Sequence record: OQ420740.1
DNA: 64,000 nt
Direction: 5' to 3' (one strand)
Source: Escherichia phage B9-1
A program made the translations under genes and the position numbers. The notes below the pieces were generated by a model. It was not told the origin of the DNA and did no database searches. It saw only the letters and a list, made by a program, of their open reading frames with translations. Shown here in pieces: positions 35,913 through 49,819 of the stretch; positions within the stretch are counted from its first letter, which is position 1; each line of letters starts with the position of its first letter.

Positions 35913-36158
35913 ATGAACAAAGGGTGGACATTTGTAGACGGCGTTAAAAACATGCCTCTAGGAAAGTATATTGTAGCCATGGCAGATGAGAATGGCAAGG
36001 TGGATTTCGGAGTTTGCGAGATTGTTCTTGCAGGATCTGGTGACTATGCCCACAAAACTGGGATAATTAACGGTCATTTCTACTTTGATTACAACCCTGT
36101 TGTGGCGTATATGGCTATGCCAGAGTTAGAGCTCCCAAAGGAGGGTGCAAATGTTTAA
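35913..36158 (+). CDS. Hypothetical protein (81 aa)
   Basis: Track ORF; RBS AGGAGA. Confidence 0.55.
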   Translation: MNKGWTFVDGVKNMPLGKYIVAMADENGKVDFGVCEIVLAGSGDYAHKTGIINGHFYFDYNPVVAYMAMPELELPKEGANV

Positions 36159-36348
36159 GCTTAAATCTGCATGGAACATTGCTGTGGGTGATGAGATCCG
36201 CATCCCTGGTGGGAAGACCGTTATGAAGATATCTCGTATTGAATACGAAGGCGACCGTGTATTCCACATCTTTGCAGAAGATGGTCGGGAAATTTATGTA
36301 CAAGCGGGCTCTCACATCTATATCCGTAAGAAAGGGGATGACAAATGA
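36145..36348 (+). CDS. Hypothetical protein (67 aa)
   Basis: Track ORF; RBS AAGGAGGG. Confidence 0.5.
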   Translation: MQMFKLKSAWNIAVGDEIRIPGGKTVMKISRIEYEGDRVFHIFAEDGREIYVQAGSHIYIRKKGDDK

Positions 36349-36674
36349 CAGAGATCATTATTTCAACTGCAGGGTATGTATTCCTGACAATCATTGCTCT
36401 GACCATTTTGGTGGCGGTATATGGATTTGTTATTCTACCTATTCTTGAGACAATTAGTTTGTGTCGGTGTTGGAGAAAGGCTTACGGTCCACAGCCGTGG
36501 AGGGACTGGCCCCACCTGGTTCGCATAGCGTTCTCTTATGCTTATGATCACGCCAGCAGTGCATGCATAACCGGGTATCACGCTCACAATTGGAACTGGG
36601 AGGGGTTGGGTAGATGGAATGTTATAAAGACCATACCTCTACGTATGCACAAGCCTAAAAACAAAGACAGTTGA
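36345..36674 (+). CDS. Putative membrane protein (109 aa)
   Basis: Track ORF; N-terminal hydrophobic helix IIISTAGYVFLTIIALTILVAVYGFVILPIL. Confidence 0.55.
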   Translation: MTEIIISTAGYVFLTIIALTILVAVYGFVILPILETISLCRCWRKAYGPQPWRDWPHLVRIAFSYAYDHASSACITGYHAHNWNWEGLGRWNVIKTIPLRMHKPKNKDS

Positions 36675-36985
36675 TACTTGAAAATCCCTGGCACATCAAG
36701 TATAAGGAGGATTTCTAAAATGGACTTCCTCCTTTTGATATTTTACCTGGCCGGATATTTTAAAATTCTTAGAAAATCAGAAAATGGATCGAAAACTAAA
36801 ATGGATTTTTCAAGACAGGCGCGATAAGATGTGCTGCTCATTCTATCGTTCGCACCGTACTTTAAGTTACTATTCCAGATTTTCCGCACATACTCTCACC
36901 CTTCTACCAGGACTTTCCCAGCTTACCTTTGACCCTTTATAACAATAAACCCATTATTCTCAGTAGGTTTTGATACATCTCTCTC

Positions 36986-37151
36986 AGTACTCGATCTGTT
37001 TTTCGTTTCAAAGATTGAATTTTCTGAAAATTTTTCTCGATAAATTTCTTAGTACTCGATCTGTTTTTCGTTTTCTGAATCAGATTTTCTGGAAATCGTT
37101 CCGGAGCTCGACCTGAAATTTTTGGGGACGAAATCGATTTTTCGTTTTCGG
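36986..37151. repeat. AT-rich iteron-like direct repeats in non-coding DNA
   Basis: AGTACTCGATCTGTTTTTCGTTT at 36986-37008 and 37051-37073; related CTCGACCTGAAATTTTTGG 37107-37125 and CGAAATCGATTTTTCGTTTTCGG 37129-37151. Confidence 0.7.
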
Positions 37152-37282
37152 AAATGGATTTTTAAAATTTGTATATGGAAATACTTAAGGAGGTATTATT
37201 TTATATAGAATTGTCACGGTAGGTAATTAGCATGCTAACTAAATTTATGAAATGCGAAAAGTTCTCATTTAGAATTTTGAAT

Positions 37283-37490
37283 GATAATCATTCTCGTTTG
37301 CAGAATAACGGGCACCCCCGGTGATTGTCTCCCGGCCCCTGTTGCCCCGGCTTGTTATTATAGTATCACACAGGACAAAGAAAGCAAGGATTTTTTGCAT
37401 AAATTTTTAAATGATAATGATAACCGTTCTCATTTTATGCAGCGCCCATCCCCGGTGGTTGTCTCCCCCGTCACCGGTGCCTGCCGTCCT
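37283..37490. repeat. Two direct copies of a GC-rich ~50-bp element (third, inverted copy at 46052-46100)
   Basis: AATGATAA...CCCGGTGATTGTCTCCC at ~37283-37340 and AATGATAATGATAA...CCCCGGTGGTTGTCTCCCCCGTCACCGGTGCC at ~37420-37490. Confidence 0.65.
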
Positions 37491-37652
37491 TTCGATAGGT
37501 ATATTGTGCCACCTGGCGGGGCCGCTGTCAACACTTTTCAAAAAAATTCTAACCTGATGCGCTAACCGTTGCAACCTGGCGGGGCCAGCCTGGCAGGGCT
37601 ATGCTATAGGGTAGGCAACAACTGAAGAGGAGGTACAAAAATAAAAGGTAAT

Positions 37653-37820
37653 ATGATCCCTGGAAATGTAGCGATTAATGACGCTGAGGCTATCGCCCTG
37701 GTTGAAAAGGCTATGGCGGGAGCGTTGGAACATAAAGAAGAGTACGAAAAAATGATGGTTAACCTGGCAGGGCGGCGGCTGGAGAATTCTGCCCAAAAAA
37801 TAATTCTAACTAATGGTTGA
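37653..37820 (+). CDS. Small hypothetical protein (55 aa)
   Basis: ORF below track cutoff, MIPGNVAINDAEAIALVEKAMAGALEHKEEYEKMMVNLAGRRLENSAQKIILTNG; RBS GAGGAGG/AAAAGG upstream. Confidence 0.35.
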   Translation: MIPGNVAINDAEAIALVEKAMAGALEHKEEYEKMMVNLAGRRLENSAQKIILTNG

Positions 37821-37896
37821 CAGCTCGGATAGTTCTGTTATTCTTATCCTCGCAAGGTGAACAACACCACACTAATTAACAGAGAGGATAAAAATC

Positions 37897-38094
37897 ATGA
37901 ACGCCTACGGAATTAAAGTACGTCGCAACACTCGCCAGGCCGTCACCGATCAAATGATTTGCCAGGTGGACGTAACCATCAACAACGGGCAAGGCCTTTA
38001 TAAATTCCGTCGCGGTCAGAGCTACACCCGGCAACAGCTTAATCGTTGCGCCCTGACAAAAGGCCAGATCAACCACTGGTTTAATAAAAAATAA
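37897..38094 (+). CDS. Small basic protein (65 aa)
   Basis: Track ORF; RBS AGAGAGGA. Confidence 0.5.
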   Translation: MNAYGIKVRRNTRQAVTDQMICQVDVTINNGQGLYKFRRGQSYTRQQLNRCALTKGQINHWFNKK

Positions 38095-38097
38095 GTA

Positions 38098-38126
38098 TTG
38101 ACATACAGTCTGACACCAAATACACT
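38098..38126 (+). promoter_or_regulatory. sigma70-type promoter
   Basis: -35 TTGACA 38098-38103, 17-bp spacer, -10 TACACT 38121-38126. Confidence 0.5.
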
Positions 38127-38158
38127 AAAAGCACAAAAGACACTAAGAGGATAAAATC

Positions 38159-38557
38159 ATGAAAACCACTACCTTTAATTTTGATAATGCGGACTTTTCT
38201 TTTTCTGATGTCAAGAACTGCCGCCGTGATCGTGGATTTTACAAGGCTTATAATCTGGTGGGCCTGGACGATGACAATAATTTGCACGAAGTAGCTGAGA
38301 TCCGGTATTATGCCGCCGCCAGCGGGAACACTCAATACTGTGTTTTTTGGATTCACGACAACAAGAACAATAAGTACGGTTATACTGGCGGGAAGGCGAG
38401 CGGTCACGGTTACGATAAAGCTAATGCAGCACTTGAGAGCGCATTAAATGCTATGGGGATCACTGCCAACGGCTGGATCTATGAAGAAGAGTTTTTGTCG
38501 GCACTTGCTAACCACCTGGGCTATAAAAAGCACATTGTAACATGCGCCCACGAATAA
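38159..38557 (+). CDS. Hypothetical protein (132 aa)
   Basis: Track ORF; RBS AAGAGGA. Confidence 0.6.
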   Translation: MKTTTFNFDNADFSFSDVKNCRRDRGFYKAYNLVGLDDDNNLHEVAEIRYYAAASGNTQYCVFWIHDNKNNKYGYTGGKASGHGYDKANAALESALNAMGITANGWIYEEEFLSALANHLGYKKHIVTCAHE

Positions 38558-38563
38558 AAATTG

Positions 38564-38620
38564 TTGACACGCTGCAAAATTCAAGTAAACTAATCACAAA
38601 AGGCGGGAATGTTTCCCGCC
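38564..38620 (+). promoter_or_regulatory. sigma70-type promoter plus 5' leader hairpin
   Basis: -35 TTGACA 38564-38569; weak -10 TAAACT ~38586; hairpin GGCGGGAA-tg-TTTCCCGCC 38602-38620 then AACACAAAGGA and ATG 38640. Confidence 0.5.
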
Positions 38621-38639
38621 AACACAAAGGAAAAAGATC

Positions 38640-39044
38640 ATGAATAAGAACGTACGCCGCATCATGAATGAACTGGCAAACGATGAAAAAATTATTGACA
38701 TGCATTTGATCAACATTTGCCGCCGTTGTGTAACATATAACAACCGCGCCGCAAAAGCGCGTGAGATGAACGCAAAAGGCACCTTAAAGCCCTTCCAGGT
38801 GGTGGTAAAGGCCATTAAAGATGTAACTAATACGGCAAATCAGGTACAGGGGAACACCAACGAAAGTACCAATATTGATCCGGCTTACATCATGAAACGG
38901 ATCCGGACCTGCAAGAACAAAGAGCAGGTGTATAACGTCATAGACTGGTTGGATTCCATGGGCGACGTGGTGTACAATAGGTTTTCTGCAGCTATCGAGA
39001 TCCAGCTTGACAGGTTGGACGGTAAAGTACTGAAAACTTACTAA
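38640..39044 (+). CDS. Hypothetical protein (134 aa)
   Basis: Track ORF. Confidence 0.6.
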   Translation: MNKNVRRIMNELANDEKIIDMHLINICRRCVTYNNRAAKAREMNAKGTLKPFQVVVKAIKDVTNTANQVQGNTNESTNIDPAYIMKRIRTCKNKEQVYNVIDWLDSMGDVVYNRFSAAIEIQLDRLDGKVLKTY

Positions 39045-39093
39045 GTTTATTTTTAGATGGCCTTGACTACAGGGCCATCAATAAAGTAAACTA
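39043..39093 (+). repeat. Conserved ~45-bp intergenic element, copy 1
   Basis: TAAGTTTATTTTTAGATGGCCTTGACTACAGGGCCATCAATAAAGTAAACT, starting on the stop codon; internal hairpin GATGGCC...GGCCATC. Confidence 0.7.
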
Positions 39094-39123
39094 ATCTCAG
39101 TTAAGCGAAAAAGGGGCTTTAAG

Positions 39124-39243
39124 ATGAGCACTACACGCCAATACACAAAGGTAACTATTATCGCCTGCGTTGTCGGTTACATCCTGGCGCAAATGTTAAT
39201 GAGTAGCGCTAACAGTTTTGCAAAATTTTTCTTAAATTTTTAA
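39124..39243 (+). CDS. Small hydrophobic peptide (39 aa)
   Basis: ORF below track cutoff, MSTTRQYTKVTIIACVVGYILAQMLMSSANSFAKFFLNF; weak RBS. Confidence 0.25.
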   Translation: MSTTRQYTKVTIIACVVGYILAQMLMSSANSFAKFFLNF

Positions 39244-39271
39244 TTGACAAGCTAACCCAAATCAGTATACT
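39244..39271 (+). promoter_or_regulatory. sigma70-type promoter
   Basis: -35 TTGACA 39244-39249, 16-bp spacer, -10 TATACT 39266-39271; then leader hairpin GGGAAAACTTCCC 39285-39297. Confidence 0.6.
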
Positions 39272-39322
39272 TAAACACGTAAACGGGAAAACTTCCCAGA
39301 ACACACAAAAGGAGAAAACACC

Positions 39323-39664
39323 ATGACTACTATGACCGCCGCAGAAAAAGCTATTCAGGTTGCCGCACTGAAAAAACAGATCGCAGACCTTGAGAACAAG
39401 ATCGATAACTTTGAAATCGACGAGGACAAGTACGACGAAAACTATGATGAATGGTTAGACGAGGTCTACGGCGAAATCATGATCGGAAACATTTCTTTTC
39501 TTCCGTCGCGTATCCTCAAGGAGCTAGATCCTATCGCTTACCGCTGCGGATTTAGCGACTACATCGACAGCCTGGATATTGAGGACGATGAAGAGTACCA
39601 AGAATTGCAAACAGAGTTGGAAGAAGCAAAAGAAGAGCTTGCAGAACTGGAAGAAAACGAGTAA
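39323..39664 (+). CDS. Highly acidic coiled-coil-like protein (113 aa)
   Basis: Track ORF; RBS AAGGAGA; D/E-rich, e.g. DEDKYDENYDEWLDE and DIEDDEEYQELQTELEEAKEELAELEENE. Confidence 0.6.
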   Translation: MTTMTAAEKAIQVAALKKQIADLENKIDNFEIDEDKYDENYDEWLDEVYGEIMIGNISFLPSRILKELDPIAYRCGFSDYIDSLDIEDDEEYQELQTELEEAKEELAELEENE

Positions 39665-39713
39665 GTTTATTTTTAGATGGCCTTGACTCCAGGGCCATCA
39701 ATAAAGTAAACTT
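39663..39713 (+). repeat. Conserved ~45-bp intergenic element, copy 2
   Basis: TAAGTTTATTTTTAGATGGCCTTGACTCCAGGGCCATCAATAAAGTAAACT, starting on the stop codon. Confidence 0.7.
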
Positions 39714-39750
39714 TACACTGTTAACACTGAACTAATGAGGAGTTAAAACC

Positions 39751-39996
39751 ATGGCAGCACTAATCACCAAATACTATGCCCCTACCAACACCAAAAGCGC
39801 CCGGATCATGGTAAAAGGCTTCGGACGTAAAAAGGTTTACACCTGGGATTATTCCCTAGACATGGAAGACAACTACACCAACGCGATGACCGATTTTATT
39901 AACGAGCTGAATACGCGGATCTTAACAAATTATAAAATTACCGACATTGCTTATATAGGTGAAGGCGGGATCTGTTTTGTAGGCATTGTGAAATAG
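39751..39996 (+). CDS. Hypothetical protein (81 aa)
   Basis: Track ORF; RBS GAGGAG. Confidence 0.55.
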   Translation: MAALITKYYAPTNTKSARIMVKGFGRKKVYTWDYSLDMEDNYTNAMTDFINELNTRILTNYKITDIAYIGEGGICFVGIVK

Positions 39997-40047
39997 TTAT
40001 TTTTTCGGTGGTCCTGGTTGCAGGGCCATCTATAAAAATAATTTACT
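39997..40047 (+). repeat. Diverged copy of the ~45-bp intergenic element
   Basis: TTATTTTTTCGGTGGTCCTGGTTGCAGGGCCATCTATAAAAATAATTTAC, directly after a stop codon. Confidence 0.5.
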
Positions 40048-40071
40048 AACACCATGAAAGGAGAAAGTAAC

Positions 40072-40425
40072 ATGATCAGCGGTGCAAGTTTTATTATTGG
40101 CGCTATTGCTACGGCTTTAATTGTAAACAAGATCCAATCCAAAAACGAAAAAGAGAGCAACGCCCTTGCAGAATATCCATTTTGGACATTTAACGATAAC
40201 GAAGATTATATTATAAAGTATAAAAATAAAGAAGGTGACCAAGTAACACCGCGACCGATCCCGGCTTACAAGATGCAGGAAACACTATACCGCCTGGAGG
40301 CGGGGGGCGCAAAAATTGTGGACTTTTGGGGATACGATCACACAGATCAGGAAGTTATAAAGCGCCGTATCCGGGCTATTCAGGCCAATATTGAAGTTAG
40401 CAAGGGGGGAATATATGAAGATTAA
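40072..40425 (+). CDS. Putative membrane-anchored protein (~117 aa)
   Basis: Track ORF 40054..40425; ATG 40072 after RBS AGGAGA; N-terminal helix ISGASFIIGAIATALIV. Confidence 0.55.
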   Translation: MISGASFIIGAIATALIVNKIQSKNEKESNALAEYPFWTFNDNEDYIIKYKNKEGDQVTPRPIPAYKMQETLYRLEAGGAKIVDFWGYDHTDQEVIKRRIRAIQANIEVSKGGIYED

Positions 40426-40612
40426 TTTTGAGAAGATTGTAAAGCGATCTCATGATTCCGAAGAGCTGCCGGAACGCCGCCAGCGTAACAATAAACTGAA
40501 TAAGCCAAAAAGATTTGGAAAGATCTGGCGAAATCATTATGATCGTAAATTGCCTGGCCTACTTTTGGAACGTGAACGACAGGCAGAACGATACCGCCAT
40601 AAAGACAAATAA
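40415..40612 (+). CDS. Small basic protein (~65 aa)
   Basis: Track ORF 40391..40612; ATG 40415 after GGGGGGA preferred. Confidence 0.45.
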   Translation: MKINFEKIVKRSHDSEELPERRQRNNKLNKPKRFGKIWRNHYDRKLPGLLLERERQAERYRHKDK

Positions 40613-40620
40613 CAACCAAC

Positions 40621-40647
40621 GCCCCGCCATTGTGCGGGGCTTTTTAT
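40621..40647 (+). terminator. Intrinsic terminator
   Basis: GCCCCGC-cattgt-GCGGGGC then TTTTTATTT. Confidence 0.75.
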
Positions 40648-40793
40648 TTCTATCCTACGAATAGCGCCCCTGGTTGGCCCTATAAGCGCCAAAAAGGCCC
40701 CCACCTATGCAATCCCCTTTCTTAACCTGAAAACATCGCCCAGGGCCGTTTTATGGCGTTAAAAATATTATTGACAGTGATTTTATTTAAAGC

Positions 40794-40821
40794 TTGACAT
40801 CTTAAACAGGTTAGCTATACT
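40794..40821 (+). promoter_or_regulatory. sigma70-type promoter
   Basis: -35 TTGACA 40794-40799, 16-bp spacer, -10 TATACT 40816-40821. Confidence 0.6.
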
Positions 40822-40853
40822 AACCACATCAAAGAGAGAAAGGAGTAAACGCC

Positions 40854-41114
40854 ATGCGTAAATTAAAAAATTTTGATAAGGTTGATGTTGTCCTGAATAA
40901 TTTTTACTACTGCAACAACAAGGCCATTTGGTGGCGTGATAGTTCCACCGATAAAGTCAAGGCGCGCTTTCTCCAGGGGCACTGGCAAGGCCGCCCAGTG
41001 ATTAAAATCATGGGGCAATTGGTAGCGTTTAAAAATTGCCGCCGTGTTGATGACGTTGAAGAGATCTTGAACATTTTACGCCACAATAATTTAAAAAATA
41101 GTGTTGACAAGTAA
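40854..41114 (+). CDS. Hypothetical protein (86 aa)
   Basis: Track ORF; RBS AAGGAG. Confidence 0.6.
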   Translation: MRKLKNFDKVDVVLNNFYYCNNKAIWWRDSSTDKVKARFLQGHWQGRPVIKIMGQLVAFKNCRRVDDVEEILNILRHNNLKNSVDK

Positions 41115-41160
41115 ATCTCGATAAGTATAATTAAACACACAGGCGGGAAAACTTCCCGCC
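41104..41160 (+). promoter_or_regulatory. Near-consensus sigma70 promoter plus 5' leader hairpin
   Basis: -35 TTGACA 41104-41109, 16-bp spacer, -10 TATAAT 41126-41131; hairpin GGCGGGAA-aac-TTCCCGCC 41142-41160; RBS AGGAGA; ATG 41189. Confidence 0.7.
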
Positions 41161-41188
41161 ACTAACAAAGAAAACAGGAGAAAATATC

Positions 41189-41812
41189 ATGACCACCGTT
41201 AACATTACCACAGGTTACAATTTATCTTTCGACGTGCTGACCGACGAACAAAAAGAAAAAGCCGTTGAAATGGTCCGCGAAAGAGAAGAACACAGCGGGG
41301 ATAACTTTTTTGCAGAAAGTGTAATTGAATACTATAAAGAATATGTTTTTCCAGAGTATGGCCTTGAAGATACCGAAGTACATTGGTCCGGCTTTTGGTG
41401 CCAGGGTGACGGCGCGTCAATCAGTGCTGAAAACGTTGATTTAGAAAAATTCTTGCGTAAAGTCAAATCTCTGACTAAATTCCGCTCAATTCGTAACTTG
41501 TTCGGCACAATGCACGATGGCGAGCTATCTGCAAGTGTTGAGCGTGATCCATATAGCCGCCATAGTCACGAAAACACTGTAAGCGGGTACATTGATACTA
41601 CATGGCTAGACCTGACAGCCAAGCAAGAAAGTAAGGTTGAAGAGCTGGAAGAGCTGATCACCGAGACGGTACGGGAGCTATCCCGCAAGGTTTATGTAGA
41701 CCTGGAGGAGGCCTATCTTGAACAGTTTACTACCGAAAACCTGATCGGCCTTATTGAAGCCAATGATTGGCGGTTTAATGTGGATGAATATGGGGAGATG
41801 AGTTTTTCATAA
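41189..41812 (+). CDS. Hypothetical acidic protein (207 aa)
   Basis: Track ORF; largest gene in the island; no motif recognised. Confidence 0.65.
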   Translation: MTTVNITTGYNLSFDVLTDEQKEKAVEMVREREEHSGDNFFAESVIEYYKEYVFPEYGLEDTEVHWSGFWCQGDGASISAENVDLEKFLRKVKSLTKFRSIRNLFGTMHDGELSASVERDPYSRHSHENTVSGYIDTTWLDLTAKQESKVEELEELITETVRELSRKVYVDLEEAYLEQFTTENLIGLIEANDWRFNVDEYGEMSFS

Positions 41813-41820
41813 ATAAAGTG

Positions 41821-41877
41821 TTGCAATAATCTAAAAACCTGCTATATTAAAACTCAAGGGGCGAGATGACTTGCCCC
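41821..41877 (+). promoter_or_regulatory. sigma70-type promoter plus 5' leader hairpin
   Basis: -35 TTGCAA 41821-41826, 16-bp spacer, -10 TATATT 41843-41848; hairpin GGGGC-gagatgactt-GCCCC 41858-41877. Confidence 0.6.
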
Positions 41878-41901
41878 ACACAAAACAAAGAGGATAACAT
41901 C

Positions 41902-42282
41902 ATGAAAAACACCACCAAGGCTATTGACACCGTTATGTTTAACCTGGTTACATTCCGTGAAGATATGAAAGATCTTCCACGTGAAACAGTGTGCGACCAT
42001 ATCGAAAACTATCGCAAACTTATTAAAGAATTGCCATTAAAACGAGATCAGTACGCGGCTAACGCTATGCTTAACGCCATGATCAAAAAGATGATCCAGT
42101 GTGATTTAACTCTGGCCTATGATTATGCAGGTGGTCGTTTTGCAGTATACAATCAGCCCGTGCCTGGTATGAGCACCACCGAAGAATTGCACGCGCTCAA
42201 TCTAAAACAAGACGTGTGGGATAATATGCCCCGCGTGGTGGTGTGGGCAGAAAGCGGAAAGATTTACGGCGATAATTTTTAA
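41902..42282 (+). CDS. Hypothetical protein (~127 aa)
   Basis: Track ORF 41866..42282; ATG 41902 after RBS AAGAGGA preferred. Confidence 0.6.
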   Translation: MKNTTKAIDTVMFNLVTFREDMKDLPRETVCDHIENYRKLIKELPLKRDQYAANAMLNAMIKKMIQCDLTLAYDYAGGRFAVYNQPVPGMSTTEELHALNLKQDVWDNMPRVVVWAESGKIYGDNF

Positions 42283-42348
42283 TCAGGTAACAGGCGGCGG
42301 CATATTTGCCGCCCTATTGTTAAGAAGAATTGTAAGAGGGTACATAGA

Positions 42349-42720
42349 ATGGAATTTATTATTTTGGCTATATTAGTTGCCTTGTTTAACGCCTGGATCG
42401 CTGGCAAGATGGGCAGATCTGCCTTTTTATGGTTTATTATATCTATCTTCCTGGGAGTGGTTGCAACTATTGTATTGGTTATCCTTGCAATTGTTGATAA
42501 GGGGAATAATAGAAAGGGTAAAGTATTTTCAGACCTGTACGACGCTCAAACATTTGTCAACGCCTACTACAGCGATCTTCCAGTCTCCCTACGTTGCAGC
42601 CTTGCACAACAGGTTTTCGATGAAGCTAAAACCAGAGATCACGCCCATGAGATATGTTTAACTGAGGCGGATCGCCTATTTGAGAGGAATAGAAAATATG
42701 TGGACCAACCGTTTAAATAA
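42349..42720 (+). CDS. Putative membrane protein (123 aa)
   Basis: Track ORF; two hydrophobic helices near N-terminus. Confidence 0.6.
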   Translation: MEFIILAILVALFNAWIAGKMGRSAFLWFIISIFLGVVATIVLVILAIVDKGNNRKGKVFSDLYDAQTFVNAYYSDLPVSLRCSLAQQVFDEAKTRDHAHEICLTEADRLFERNRKYVDQPFK

Positions 42721-42770
42721 TGCCACGTTAATTAATCCCTTTAGTGAAGATTTGAAGCCAGCCGCCTGGC

Positions 42771-42956
42771 GTGATGGATTCAATAACGAAAGCTTTATTT
42801 TCAGGCCTGATCTTAAGGAATTTTATAACAATGGATCGAACAACGACAGAGATAATTTTTCTCGTAATGTGCGTGGCGATAATACTCCTGGGGGCCATTG
42901 CAAACCACGTCACTGCTAACAGGAGGGAAGGGGGAGACGATGACACCCAAGGATAA
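42771..42956 (+). CDS. Possible small membrane protein (61 aa); frame choice ambiguous
   Basis: Track ORF with hydrophobic segment IIFLVMCVAIILLGAIA; competing ORF 42680..42919 in another frame. Confidence 0.3.
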   Translation: MMDSITKALFSGLILRNFITMDRTTTEIIFLVMCVAIILLGAIANHVTANRREGGDDDTQG

Positions 42957-43059
42957 GCCCCGCACCGATAAGGCGCGCCGTGTTATGGTATGGCTTGAGA
43001 TCATCGCCCTTGAAATATTGTTAGGCGTAGGGATGTATTTTATCGCTGTAAGTAACTGA
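42940..43059 (+). CDS. Small membrane peptide (39 aa)
   Basis: ORF below track cutoff, MTPKDKPRTDKARRVMVWLEIIALEILLGVGMYFIAVSN; strong RBS AGGAGGGAAGGGGGAG; followed by terminator. Confidence 0.4.
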   Translation: MTPKDKPRTDKARRVMVWLEIIALEILLGVGMYFIAVSN

Positions 43060-43063
43060 TAAC

Positions 43064-43096
43064 GGCCCCCGATCCCTGGGGGCCTAACTTTTTAAA
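43064..43096 (+). terminator. Intrinsic terminator
   Basis: GGCCCCC-gatccct-GGGGGCC then TAACTTTTTAAATTTTTT. Confidence 0.75.
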
Positions 43097-43113
43097 TTTT
43101 TTCTCCCTGGGTG

Positions 43114-43165
43114 TTGCAATCCGATCCAGAATATGGATAATAACAATCAACGGGGAGCAATCCCC
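43114..43165 (+). promoter_or_regulatory. sigma70-type promoter plus 5' leader hairpin
   Basis: -35 TTGCAA 43114-43119, 16-bp spacer, -10 GATAAT 43136-43141; hairpin GGGGAGCAATCCCC 43152-43165 then ACCAACACAAAG. Confidence 0.6.
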
Positions 43166-43196
43166 ACCAACACAAAGACTAAAAAGGAGAAACAAA

Positions 43197-43397
43197 ATGA
43201 GCAACAATATCCGCGTTATTAACTTCAAAAAAGAAGAAAAAATTGCCGTGCTGATTGACGGTCAAGAAATCTTTAAAGGCGATTATGAAGATCATCAGGT
43301 AGCGATCAGTATTACCCGCGTGATTGGTTACCATAATTTTTACCCCCAAGGCGCTGAGGCAGCAGTAAAACGAATTAAAGAGATTGTAGGCCTGTAA
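43197..43397 (+). CDS. Hypothetical protein (66 aa)
   Basis: Track ORF; RBS AAGGAGA. Confidence 0.6.
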   Translation: MSNNIRVINFKKEEKIAVLIDGQEIFKGDYEDHQVAISITRVIGYHNFYPQGAEAAVKRIKEIVGL

Positions 43398-43399
43398 AA

Positions 43400-43444
43400 T
43401 TTATTTTTAGATGGCCTTGACTCCAGGGCCATCAATAAAGTAAA
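43400..43444 (+). repeat. Conserved ~45-bp intergenic element, copy 3
   Basis: TTTATTTTTAGATGGCCTTGACTCCAGGGCCATCAATAAAGTAAA, immediately after stop codon at 43395-43397. Confidence 0.7.
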
Positions 43445-43481
43445 TTTAAACCCTGTTAAAATAATCAGTGCAAAAGGAGTA

Positions 43482-43787
43482 ATGATCATGTTTATCCAGG
43501 CTAATAATCTTTATTTCTTTGATGGTCAGATCGTAGACGGCGTGGAGGTGGAAATCACCGGGTGCCCTGGCGGTCAGGTTATGACTTTTCGGAATAATGC
43601 CTTTGATGATTCTCATATCGTTATGAGAATGGAAGTTAGTAAGCTGGACGATAAGAAAACACTCATTGATTATTCCGTGAAAGATCATCCAGACTACCAC
43701 ATGATCTATGGCGATTTGTGCATTGTTGACCGTGACAAGGTGGGCGGCATTGTGATCGCTATTGTGAACGATGTTTTCTCTAAATAA
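43482..43787 (+). CDS. Hypothetical protein (101 aa)
   Basis: Track ORF; RBS AAGGAG; ATG 43488 equally possible. Confidence 0.6.
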   Translation: MIMFIQANNLYFFDGQIVDGVEVEITGCPGGQVMTFRNNAFDDSHIVMRMEVSKLDDKKTLIDYSVKDHPDYHMIYGDLCIVDRDKVGGIVIAIVNDVFSK

Positions 43788-43927
43788 TTCCGGCAAATGA
43801 TGCAAAATAAGGCCCCTGGCAGGGCCTGCAGCGATATAATCACATAAAGGCTATGCGGTTGCATGGCCTTTATTATTTTAGCGTTACAGCTGCCCCCAAG
43901 GCGCTTAAAAAATTTTTAAAGAAGTAC

Positions 43928-43955
43928 TTGCATCAAGTCCTACAATATGGATAAT
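43928..43955 (+). promoter_or_regulatory. sigma70-type promoter
   Basis: -35 TTGCAT 43928-43933, 16-bp spacer, -10 GATAAT 43950-43955; same ATATGGATAATAA block as the 43114 promoter. Confidence 0.55.
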
Positions 43956-44016
43956 AAAGGGTGTCGGGGGGCGGTGAGGCCTCCAATCATTAACCAGATA
44001 GATAGGAGTTAAAACC

Positions 44017-44301
44017 ATGGCTATTGTTACCGTTGGCGATGTAGTAGAAATGGAAGCCAAATACTTAAAAGCGGGTATGCATATCATACGGAATGATCAA
44101 GAATTGTTATTAACCATGGTTGAATATAATCCCGGTCAGGATTATCCTAGCGTTGACTACTTTTTCCAGTATGTTGATGAAGAATTAAAAGAGGATGAGG
44201 CTTATCAGGGTGAATTTTGCAATTTCTTTTGCTCTGACGAGGTTGTAAAAGTTATTTATCAACCTGGTGTACCTTTCCCGTTGCACGCCATCAATAAATA
44301 A
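44017..44301 (+). CDS. Hypothetical protein (94 aa)
   Basis: Track ORF; RBS TAGGAG. Confidence 0.6.
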   Translation: MAIVTVGDVVEMEAKYLKAGMHIIRNDQELLLTMVEYNPGQDYPSVDYFFQYVDEELKEDEAYQGEFCNFFCSDEVVKVIYQPGVPFPLHAINK

Positions 44302-44367
44302 GCCTGGCGGGGCCGAAAAGGCCCCTCCTGAAATTATGAAAAAAAAAATAAAGAGGGGTGAATCATC

Positions 44368-46051: not shown

Positions 46052-46100
46052 GGGTGGCACCTGGCGACGGGGGGAGACAATCACCGGGCCTGCCTGTCAT
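46052..46100 (-). repeat. Inverted copy of the GC-rich element found at 37283-37490
   Basis: Reverse complement ATGACAGGCAGGCCCGGTGATTGTCTCCCCCCGTCGCCAGGTGCC aligns closely with 37436-37490. Confidence 0.6.
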
Positions 46101-47412: not shown

Positions 47413-49819
47413 CTGCTCTTCTCCTACCATAAACGGCCCTACCTGGCAAGTGGAATAATTGACTAGCCATCAATCCCACACACTGTACAAATATACATAT
47501 AAAATAACTATTGCATAATCTTTCACTGTGTGGTAGCAGGGCCATTTTTACCCGTTTTCTCTCCCAAAAGTGCACGTAATGCCGCTATTGCACAAATTTT
47601 AACCTGATGCACATCTCCAATATCTTGTCAACAACTAAAAATCTTTATAAGTCATACACTTACACAACATAGAAAGCGTGTCCTACGCGAAAAATCGAGT
47701 ATAACTATAGCCGCCAGATCTCAGAATTCACGTACGAACACCATTCTATAGTCTGCAAAGTATTTATTCCAACCACAGAATAACGGAATAGTCAATACCT
47801 GCATAAAATAATTATTCGTGTAAACTGCATAACATAAATCAGCTCAGGTGTCAACATTTTTCGTAAACAGTCCGAAATTATCACGATGAGTTATCATAAA
47901 CAGAGAAATCTTTAGTCGTCTAATGTTTACTGTACATTACTATACTGACTGGAATCATTAGATGACTAAGAGAAAGATAAGAAATAATTAATAATGTAAT
48001 TGTTTTACCTGTAACAATAAGGCAACTATGCAAACGAATGGCATGGCGCGACGGAGTCGCGACATAATATAAAAGCAGTAACAATCACCCCCGTGATAGT
48101 TTTTCTGCAATCTATTACTCAGATCATAGTTGCCTTGTATTTAGTTAATCATGACATAACAAGCAAGGCAACTATAGATCTTCTAATAGTTGCCCTGCTT
48201 TTATATTATGTCATAGATTGTTAGCTTGTTAATTGTTTTCATGCAAACGAATGGCATGGCTTATCATCTCTGTGTAAACTGTTCAGGCGTAAACAGTCTA
48301 TGCGTAAACAGTGAGATATGGAATAGTAACAGCCGTTATTGTGTCATATTGTGTGACATTGTGTCCGGTGTCTGGTGTCCAGTGTGTCAGACAAGTTTTT
48401 CTCCTCTTTGTCAAGTGCTGCATGAAAAATTTACAAACTGGTATGGTAGCATTTTTGCGGCCCTGTTTACATTCAGGAATGTATGTATAATCCTTGTTGT
48501 GTGGGCGTTTAGACGTCTGGACGGTCAGAAGTCTGCAGGTCAATATCTAATCTATTGGTTGCTAACTATATCCCACACAAATAGTAAGAAATATAATTGT
48601 TATATGCGTAAACAGTAACCCATGTTATCAATCCCTGCATGTATCGCCAGTGGTGCGCATAATGGGTATTATGTTAAATTGCCCGTAATGATAACCATTC
48701 TCACAATGATAGGTATTCTCATTCACTCCCACAAGATAGATTGCAAATGTTGTGCCACTGTGTGAACGGCCTGGCCTATTAATTTGCCTCACTGCCTCGA
48801 TATTTGAGAATTATTATAAAAATGAGAAGTATTCCCATTCCGTCCGCCTGGCAGCACTCCTGTAGGACAGGCACAAAATCGGGGTATAACTGGACCTGTT
48901 CAGATATTTCTGGCTGACTCTTCAGGCCTGTGTGGGAAAAGCCAACCTCTCCGGCGGCGGGGAGGGGTCAATTAAAAAATTTACGTGGTGTATGAAGCGC
49001 TCTTCAGGTAAGGCAGGTATTATGGGATGAAACCCTCTTCAGATGATGATATTTGTGGGTGTGATATTTGCTGGAAAGCCAGATATGACGGGACTCCCGG
49101 CAGGGGTGGGGTAGTACAGACAGGGAAAATGTGGGAATGTGATGGAGTAAATTGATCAGGTAGGTAGGATATGGAATATGTTACAAGTATGTTAAATATG
49201 GAGGTAGGATATTTGTAAGATTTGTGTGTAAAATCAAATACTTAAGTGGTGTTGTGGTATTTTCTATAAATAATTCAAGTTTAATAGGTGATATTTGTCT
49301 CCATCCACTTTGTGTGGTAAACAGATTCTAATTGAATTGGTTTACAAGTGTATATAAAGTATACAAATTAAAGATATAAGAAACCCCCCTCCCCCTTCGG
49401 CTACCATTCACCTTTTCCTCTGACTGGTACTTAAACACTTATTCAGACTCTTCAGGTTATCACCCATATACTATATGGCAGTGACTGGTGTCCTCCGGCC
49501 CCTCTTTCGTCACCCGTCCGCTTCGCCATGCTAATGCCATAGCCAAATGTTCGGTTGTTCACCCTGTTCACTCAGGTGTATCTCCATACCCCTTCAAACC
49601 GAAGAGAACAGAAAACCCGAATTACTCGGTAAAAGAAAAGAGAAGAACTTAATTTTATCAAGATAGGCAAGAATGTCAAGGGATGACTGCTCACTAAACA
49701 AGCAAACAGTCATGTGTGGTGGGTAAGTAACTGTGTTGGTAGGAAATTTAGTTGAAAGATGTTATAGGTGCCTCCAGAACCTTAGCTGGGCAGCTAAACC
49801 TGCAAAGCAGACTTGTGTG
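47413..49819. other. 2.4-kb non-coding, repeat-dense region between convergent gene blocks
   Basis: No convincing ORF; CGTAAACAGT x4, ATGCAAACGAATGGCATGGC x2, AAGGCAACTAT x4 in alternating orientation, palindrome GTCGCGAC, CTCTTCAGG x4. Confidence 0.7.

Follow-up and report, generated by a model that had tools for sequence, protein, structure and literature searches.

A conserved gene-free module of rV5-like phages joins a three-unit repeat array to Fur-type boxes and predicted promoters

In the primary replication origin of phage T7, the promoters phi1.1A and phi1.1B precede an AT-rich segment, and oriF and oriG of phage T4 combine a promoter with an unwinding element. Two-site origins occur in the phages SPP1 (oriL and oriR) and P4 (ori and crr). 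The iteron origins of RK2, pSC101 and P1 (oriR) and the lambda origin carry direct repeats in the same orientation beside AT-rich non-coding DNA that unwinds, with a promoter nearby and GATC in the repeats; iteron arrays comprise 4-7 repeats of 17-22 bp at about 22 bp, with a neighbouring Rep or O gene and with consensus sites for DnaA and integration host factor (IHF). A further large untranslated locus, the injection stop signal (iss) of phage T5, is a conserved, repeat-rich region at 7.9% of the genome (bioRxiv 10.1101/866236). Here, we describe an array of three direct repeat units at positions 36984-37151 of a 64,000-nucleotide stretch of Escherichia phage B9-1 (sequence record OQ420740.1), which was analysed whole and is called the window below. 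Its sequence features strongly support a non-coding, cis-acting set of repeats for protein binding, whether as origin-like or as regulator sites. The three repeats form the AT-rich arm of a gene-free cis-acting module of about 0.9 kb, whose geometry is rigid across the Vequintavirinae and partly recognisable in Phapecoctavirus and in the Aeromonas Plateaulakevirus. No published description of this locus was found in the literature on Vequintaviruses.

The window belongs to a Vequintavirus, an rV5-like myovirus: its positions 36600-37700 match 121 phage records, the nearest being Escherichia phages ECP2303 and ECP26 (98-99%), with rV5 at 89%. A sequence-only reading of this DNA had placed the repeats in a stretch of about 1 kb without a credible open reading frame (ORF). 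We confirmed this, as a 978-bp gap holding only short ORFs separates the gp195 homologue (36345-36674, plus strand) from the next credible gene, a small gp192-like one at 37653-37820; the equivalent gap in rV5 lies at about 116.6-117.7 kb. The longest ORFs in the gap span 48-52 amino acids (aa), except for one of 94 aa over the GC-rich part, and in relatives the gap ORFs are disrupted by indels that are not multiples of three or by loss of the start codon. Annotation of short ORFs here is inconsistent among public records. The array itself has stops in all frames, and the minus strand of 36937-37269 has no ORF of at least 25 aa. A Pfam search with the flanking ORFs (36345-36674 and 37653-37820) and the gap ORFs, at E values up to 1, returned a single chance match (0.25), to a minus-strand ORF. 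A coding reading of the gap was therefore rejected, its ORFs being short, record-dependent, indel-broken and devoid of Pfam matches.

The 23-bp repeat reported earlier was recovered exactly: AGTACTCGATCTGTTTTTCGTTT lies at 36986-37008 and 37051-37073, with no other match at three or fewer mismatches in the 64 kb, and 0 of 100 dinucleotide shuffles reproduced the repeat match. Two shorter sequences that had been listed as related units are present, at 37107-37125 (CTCGACCTGAAATTTTTGG) and 37129-37151 (CGAAATCGATTTTTCGTTTTCGG), but they are not separate units. Comparison with other genera showed that they are the left and right halves of a single third unit. The layout of a unit is bipartite, with CTCGATC, a T-rich spacer and an ATCG-type right half, and the array reads as follows:

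36984..37048, plus strand: repeat unit a, with CTCGATC at 36990-36996, a T-rich spacer and the right half AAGATTGAATTT
37049..37100, plus strand: repeat unit b, with CTCGATC at 37055-37061
37101..37151, plus strand: repeat unit c, with the left half CTCGACC at 37107-37113 and the right half CGAAATCGATTTTT at 37129-37142

The three units, the only ones present, are 38-45 bp in size and start 65 and 52 bp apart, and unit c includes an imperfect palindrome (37118-37155). The description of this DNA as AT-rich was borne out: the GC fraction is 0.327 over 36977-37175, among the three lowest-GC spots of the window, against 0.434 for the window as a whole, and it stays at 0.28-0.33 across 36977-37250. 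Between units a and b, at 37037-37046, stands TCGATAAATT, which we take to be a high-affinity H-NS nucleation motif; this exact copy is the only one in the window, and it is nearly invariant in the genus and absent from other genera. Resemblances to SlmA, ArgR and LexA motifs, judged by eye, were dropped as non-conserved or out of register.

Conservation within the genus was measured in an alignment of 17 Vequintaviruses. Mean pairwise identity was 0.93 over the array (36984-37175), compared with 0.71 in the spacer on its left (36830-36980) and 0.77 at the 3' end of gp195, and for 115 of the 116 Vequintavirus records at least 80% of the query was covered by one aligned place. Copy b of the 23-mer is invariant in the 17 phages, bar a single-base change in one of them. 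Copy a has three haplotypes. It is identical to b here and in certain other phages, but differs from it at 4-5 positions (CTACTTTTCATYTCA) in rV5, navn, FFH2 and others. Such partial identity suggests gene conversion. Neither copy varies at the core GTACTCGATCT in any of the 17 aligned phages, and unit c varies between phages in its middle part (37097-37113) but not in its flanks.

The likeness of the array to other genera was missed by ordinary blastn. A sensitive blastn search with 37216-37600 led to the gene-free gaps of Certrevirus (PBES02), Seunavirus (PVP-SE1), Mydovirus (Mydo), Avunavirus (19-1-2), Phapecoctavirus (UP17) and the Aeromonas Plateaulakevirus (2L372D). The first four genera have exactly three units each, on one strand, with the consensus gGttCTCGATCga.ttTTCa.ttTc.A.AtCGTAtTt and start-to-start spacings of 74-78 and then 63-68 bp, and 12 further arrays were found in metagenomic viral contigs of 120-150 kb. 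CTCGATC, TTC and CGTA are the invariant parts of the three-unit arrays; units a and b of the window fit the left two-thirds of the consensus. In global alignments, the window array shows 69-75% identity to those of other genera (z 9-16 against shuffles). Phapecoctavirus UP17 has an unrelated 72-nt repeat pair in place of the units and keeps the boxes, the promoter and the rest of the module described below. Such a swap is expected where lineage-specific protein sites stand next to host-factor sites.

A pattern scan for the two-copy repeat gave, beyond Vequintaviruses, only two unrelated coding repeats, and in bacterial genomes the unit pattern gave nothing but chance matches, in high-GC taxa. 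The gp195 protein, being genus-specific, was dropped as an anchor for distant relatives. A plasmid search returned one match, a 137.5-kb 'plasmid' whose sequence is a Vequintavirus genome (CP057073.1, 137,565 bp, an E. coli entry in PLSDB). Sixteen 'Campylobacter phage' records (MG0656xx, of which MG065659.1 is marked UNVERIFIED) are likewise Vequintaviruses. Mislabelling, contamination or a carrier state is the likely origin of such records.

Across these loci the parts keep one order. Reading the plus strand from left to right, a GATATTT cluster is followed by a variable spacer, units a-c, the least stable duplex and a set of Fur-type boxes; then come a G/C-rich segment of 40-50 bp, a leftward sigma-70 promoter and a second leftward promoter. 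Four other genera have 4-6 copies of GATATTT, 250-320 bp left of unit a, and 2 copies are found here. In Vequintavirus, the set of box, GC-rich segment and promoter occurs twice (37251-37390 and 37390-37531). To the right of the array, the window contains:

37152..37211, unstranded: candidate DNA-unwinding element, the 60 bp of lowest duplex stability in the 64-kb window
37251-37269 and 37280-37298, unstranded: two Fur-box-type 9-1-9 palindromes 29 bp apart, with 3 and 2 mismatches to AATGAGAATnATTCTCATT
37416..37434, unstranded: third Fur-type box, in the second copy of the duplicated unit, with 3 mismatches to the 9-1-9 consensus
37357..37387, minus strand: predicted leftward sigma-70 promoter P-1, TTGCTT with TACTAT after 16 nt or TATAAT after 19
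37503..37531, minus strand: predicted leftward sigma-70 promoter P-2, TTGACA-N17-CACAAT with an extended -10 TG, scoring 10/12 in the scan
37277..37306, plus strand: possible rightward promoter P+, TTGAAT-N18-CAGAAT, with a start inferred at about 37313

The candidate unwinding element has a nearest-neighbour free energy of -62.8 kcal/mol (window mean -80.0, standard deviation 4.4). It abuts unit c and ranks second at the 100-bp scale. Between it and the first box, a perfect 12-bp palindrome, TTAGCATGCTAA at 37227-37238, lies in an almost invariant stretch.

The sequence AATGAGAATnATTCTCATT is identical to the Fur-box consensus derived for Xanthomonas, and the authors of that consensus put its identity to the Shewanella and Bacillus consensus sequences at 84% (PMC1790865). 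Against the E. coli Fur 19-mer consensus, the sites starting at 37277, 37413 and 48684 match at 15/19, 16/19 and 15/19 positions. Counting strand-specific Fur sites with at most four mismatches gave 5, with 0.2 expected, and the 9-1-9 consensus occurs 6 times (1.0 expected), always in the module or in the following element:

48390..48848, unstranded: direct terminal repeat marking the physical genome end, with 96% identity to the annotated 459-bp repeat_region of phage Gotham

Elsewhere in the window, Fur-type boxes lie only inside this repeat, 11.4 kb from the module (two starting at 48687 and 48705, within 48687-48723, and one at 48821-48839). Modules of other genera have 1-4 palindromes, also with a 29-bp period. 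Moreover, 13 nt at 37288-37300 (ATCATTCTCGTTT) are identical to part of the region upstream of E. coli fhuA. A blastn comparison of the box region with 5,426 E. coli genomes gave no match, short matches being unreported at that database size. The boxes hardly differ among phages of Escherichia, Salmonella, Cronobacter, Klebsiella, Proteus and Aeromonas, and the units change between lineages; this contrast fits a host factor on the boxes and a phage-specific protein on the units.

Candidate boxes for host Fur in strictly virulent phages, at the module and in the terminal repeat, are the unusual ingredient of this locus. They resemble Fur-repressed promoters, such as that of E. coli fhuA and those behind the Xanthomonas, Shewanella and Bacillus consensus sequences, in the 19-bp palindrome AATGAGAATnATTCTCATT and in one box that fills the spacer of a promoter-like site. 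They differ from known Fur boxes in being carried by a virulent phage, in forming arrays with a 29-bp period, in lying in a non-coding module and a terminal repeat, and in having no iron-related gene downstream in the phage.

P-1 and P-2 are consensus-level predictions, with starts expected near 37350 and 37496 on the minus strand. Upstream of P-1 there is an A/T-rich tract resembling an UP element. For the counterparts of P-1 in loci of the Certre-, Seuna-, Mydo- and Phapecoctavirus type, 79-82 bp separate the -10 hexamer from the last box, a distance that is 129 bp in the Aeromonas phage; the hexamers are conserved and the spacers have diverged; a second leftward promoter about 150-160 bp behind the first was also seen in Mydo, UP17 and four metagenomic relatives. 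Relative to these strong leftward promoters, the boxes stand at about +50 to +100. Both P-1 and P-2 point away from all neighbouring genes, and no minus-strand ORF of at least 25 aa occurs for about 400 nt downstream. P+ would face the leftward promoter head-on, the last box of the pair filling its 18-bp spacer. At 8/12 it falls below the threshold of the promoter scan and was not called, but both hexamers are kept in 4 of 7 lineages, with close variants in 2 more.

To the left of the array, two further features were identified:

36704..36744, plus strand: terminator-like hairpin, AAGGAGGA, a 15-nt loop and TCCTCCTT, then TTTTGATATTTT
36715..36815, plus strand: conserved block A, with two GATATTT (36737 and 36754) and AAATGGAT repeats

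The hairpin (36704-36734, followed by the U-tract) is the dominant helix in the fold of 36695-36835 and the one structure with good support. All 17 phages keep it, slur12 by compensation on both sides (GGAGAA/TTCTCC), and further changes are G-U-compatible on the plus strand only. It looks like the terminator of the upstream plus-strand operon. Mean pairwise identity in block A is 0.91, compared with 0.71 in the adjacent spacer. A 35-aa ORF annotated in ECP2303 (36721-36828, plus strand) has a perfect AAGGAGG ribosome-binding site, which is one arm of this hairpin; in relatives the ORF shows ATA in place of ATG, a 4-nt deletion or a 1-nt indel, and it is probably not a gene.

Other observations concern the right side of the gap. 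In PVP-SE1, Mydo and KPP-1, a small leftward gene with DUF7170 lies right of the module, and it has no homologue in this window. Avunavirus has an unrelated 87-aa protein at that place, with an unannotated homologue in UP17 and none here. DUF7170 and the other small leftward genes were rejected as candidates for a box-binding protein, as they are absent from the window and not universal. At about 37599, just upstream of the first gene after the gap, 50-60 bp present in most Vequintaviruses (ACCTAACTGACCAGGTAGGAGAG...CCTGGTGGGC) are missing here, and FV3, slur12 and C5 show similar deletions at CCTGG repeats. The motif CCTGGCRGGGC has 6 exact copies between 37.5 and 44.3 kb (37512-44313), all on the plus strand; with one mismatch allowed there are 8 matches, and 0.97 are expected.

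We tentatively favour, as a leading reading held at less than even confidence, that the module is an internal replication origin activated by transcription, with a logic like that of T7 and T4 and possibly gated by Fur. P-1 and P-2 would fire leftward by means of sigma-70 with no gene to express. The transcript would pass through a G-cluster-rich leader, then the Fur-box array, and would then reach the least stable duplex and the three units. The G clusters in the first 50 nt of this predicted transcript may favour R-loops. A unit-specific DNA-binding protein would organise the AT-rich arm, and the change of the units from lineage to lineage makes a phage gene its probable source. At the units, the duplex would be opened by transcription or by an R-loop, and the T7-like primase-helicase and the Pol A of the phage could then load. 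Host Fur on the boxes, together with a possible Fur-repressed convergent P+, might tune leftward transcription to iron status.

Several observations are consistent with such an origin. The promoters, at the level of consensus matches, are aimed into an ORF-free candidate unwinding element, as in a transcription-activated origin, and this AT-rich element adjoins the repeats, as in an iteron origin. A repeat array that is specific to the lineage thus stands at the most easily melted DNA of the region. The replisome of rV5 is of the T7 type, gp228 being a Pol A and gp230 a gp4-like helicase-primase (PMC3606486). The likeness to T7 and T4 origins thus lies in tandem promoters directed into an AT-rich ORF-free segment, in a T7-type replisome and in no dedicated initiator gene being recognised. 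By contrast, the predicted promoters here are of the host sigma-70 kind and depend neither on a phage RNA polymerase nor on MotA, three long conserved units are present, and Fur-type boxes stand between the promoter and the candidate unwinding element. Fur-type boxes and GATATTT are also shared with the distant terminal repeat, which we count in favour of an origin, as SPP1 and P4 likewise have the same short motifs at two loci many kilobases apart. In those phages the comparison differs in that here the units are not among the shared motifs and the second locus is a terminal repeat.

A number of results weigh against an origin at this place. Cumulative GC skew shows no sign change at 37 kb; right of the module, GC skew goes from about +0.13 to +0.04 and AT skew rises, the opposite of what a bidirectional origin would give. 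Skew in the window mainly follows transcription, and in the rV5 genome paper a skew-based origin search was unsuccessful, finding only transcription-linked changes (PMC3606486). The idea of iterons put forward by the sequence-only reading survives in part: a conserved non-coding array of probable protein sites does lie beside DNA predicted to unwind easily, in direct repeats of one orientation with a promoter nearby and GATC in the repeats, as in the iteron and lambda origins. The label itself is not supported by unit size, by spacing or by DnaA and IHF sites. Instead of 17-22-bp repeats at about 21-24-bp spacing, there are three units of 38-45 bp, 52-78 bp apart. No DnaA box (TTWTNCACA) was found in 36000-38000 and no IHF site (WATCAANNNNTTR) in 36500-37700, and Pfam recognised no initiator gene, of the Rep or O kind or other, beside the array; an initiator could be encoded elsewhere in the genome. 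GATC is not enriched, with 3 in the gap and 5 per kb in the window. ICP1, whose replication proteins are related, has no comparable module in its mapped early origin region, near 60 kb (PMC7145576). Finally, the boxes and the face-to-face promoters would fit a purely transcriptional switch equally well.

This last point leads to the main rival, which we regard as possible, if doubtful: control of transcription in response to iron. Fur would repress P+, the leftward promoters would interfere with it, and the output would be the plus-strand genes to the right, which are small early genes here and DNA ligase in Mydo. The units and the AT-rich, possibly curved DNA would offer upstream binding sites to an activator or to H-NS, Fis or another nucleoid protein, and the H-NS-type motif that we presume at 37037 is exact. 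The identity of the boxes to the published Fur consensus and the 13 nt in common with the fhuA upstream region speak for such a switch, as do the position of a box exactly between TTGAAT and CAGAAT, hexamers retained or nearly so in most lineages, and the rigid distance from the last box to the leftward -10. In addition, the hairpin at 36704-36744 ends the upstream operon, if it is a terminator, so that downstream genes need a new promoter. P+ is weak, however, and in no lineage is it followed by a conserved ORF for several hundred bases. The downstream genes have strong promoters of their own, the two strong conserved promoters face away from all genes, and a simple operator leaves unexplained why three rigidly ordered units lie 190-330 bp upstream.

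The terminal repeat bears on other readings. Vequintavirus terminal repeats measure 458-459 bp (PMC7471380; PMC6563267), and 11.3-11.9 kb separate the module from the physical end, some 8% of the genome of about 137 kb. The possibility that the 23-mer repeats themselves mark a terminal repeat or pac site was rejected, as the physical end maps to 48390-48848. Of 12 plus-strand copies of GATATTT(G), 8 are in the module or the terminal region, and 6 of the 10 outside the module lie at 48799-49290. In the Mydovirus KPP-1, the module is 8.5-9 kb from a 514-bp repeat, which also has a box. Just inside the terminal repeat of the window (48214-48385) are short tandem arrays of TAGATTGT, GTAAACAGTCCAGGC, TATTGTGTCA and GTGTCCG. 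The approximately 2.6 kb around the terminal repeat correspond to a 2.6-kb stretch of rV5 without annotated genes, probably the 'non-coding' box in the rV5 genome paper.

It is thus conceivable, although unlikely in our estimation, that the module is an element for DNA entry or anchoring like the T5 injection stop signal, at which a pause in genome transfer, or a bridge that closes off a topological domain, would allow the small terminal genes (about 11 kb) to be expressed first. Module and terminal repeat bracket a terminal block of small genes of this length, the boxes and GATATTT are nearly confined to these two places in the window, and the distance and the box in KPP-1 agree with such a role. 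As in T5, a large untranslated repeat-rich region lies about 8% from the end, is better conserved than the neighbouring genes and shares elements between two places. Two defining features of the T5 type are nevertheless lacking: the terminal repeat is 459 bp long, not about 10 kb, with the module outside it, and no pair of DnaA boxes was found in 36000-38000. Two-step transfer is a feature of T5 and is not recorded for these phages, promoter-like sites are not confined to the terminal block, and the conserved distance may be plain synteny. Similarly improbable is a variant in which a whole subfamily of strictly virulent phages uses host Fur as a sensor or architectural factor, the box arrays at the end and at the module forming, together with the units, an iron-gated checkpoint on entry, on looping or on first replication.

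We consider it quite unlikely that the module works through a non-coding RNA, either a leftward transcript from P-1 or P-2 in which the units would be RNA modules, or a small RNA made rightward from P+ under repression by Fur, with a C-rich 5' end complementary to GGGGAGACAATCACCGGG at 46071-46088. The orphan conserved promoters and the G-U-compatible variation of the unit-c hairpin on the plus strand would suit an RNA. So would a GC-rich 18-mer, CCCGGTGRTTGTCTCCCC, found at 37317-37334 and 37451-37468 on the plus strand and inverted at 46071-46088 on the minus strand (0.03 expected), which might mark a dispersed protein site or pair an RNA with its target; the site at 46 kb, however, sits in an intergenic spacer between a terminator and a promoter. 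Folding gives no support to a structured RNA, with z-scores of +0.24 and +0.35 for the two strands of the array, from +1.0 to -0.8 for leader transcripts and from +1.0 to -1.3 for all folds compared with shuffles (array, block A and putative transcripts). For the GC-rich leader in five genera, RNAalifold found no supported structure and a covariation term of 0, Rfam had no match below E 0.6 for the window and none up to E 0.1 for six related loci, and no minus-strand terminator was found downstream of the array. The primary sequence CTCGATC is invariant in 27 distinct units, which points to recognition of DNA.

That the repeats have no function, as a recent local duplication, a chance repeat or part of small real protein genes, is highly improbable: copies a and b agree only in part of the genus, as gene conversion might produce, and some records annotate short ORFs here, but these differ between records and are broken by indels, no shuffle matched the repeat, and conservation of the array across genera whose flanking DNA no longer aligns contradicts it.

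The rV5-like phages and their relatives (PVP-SE1, CR3-type phages and Mydo-type phages of Klebsiella and Proteus) are widely isolated as candidates for therapy and biocontrol. For these phages, the analysis defines a small cis-module of about 0.9 kb that is open to experiment, its parts each named and its conservation reaching beyond ordinary DNA similarity, and several short ORFs annotated at this locus in public records are probably not genes. If the module is an origin, it would give a handle for engineering and for studies of replication. An iron-gated checkpoint, if true, would couple phage development to the iron state of the host. If the Fur boxes are functional, they would clearly exemplify how a virulent enterobacterial phage can tie a nutrient regulator of its host to non-coding control DNA of its own.

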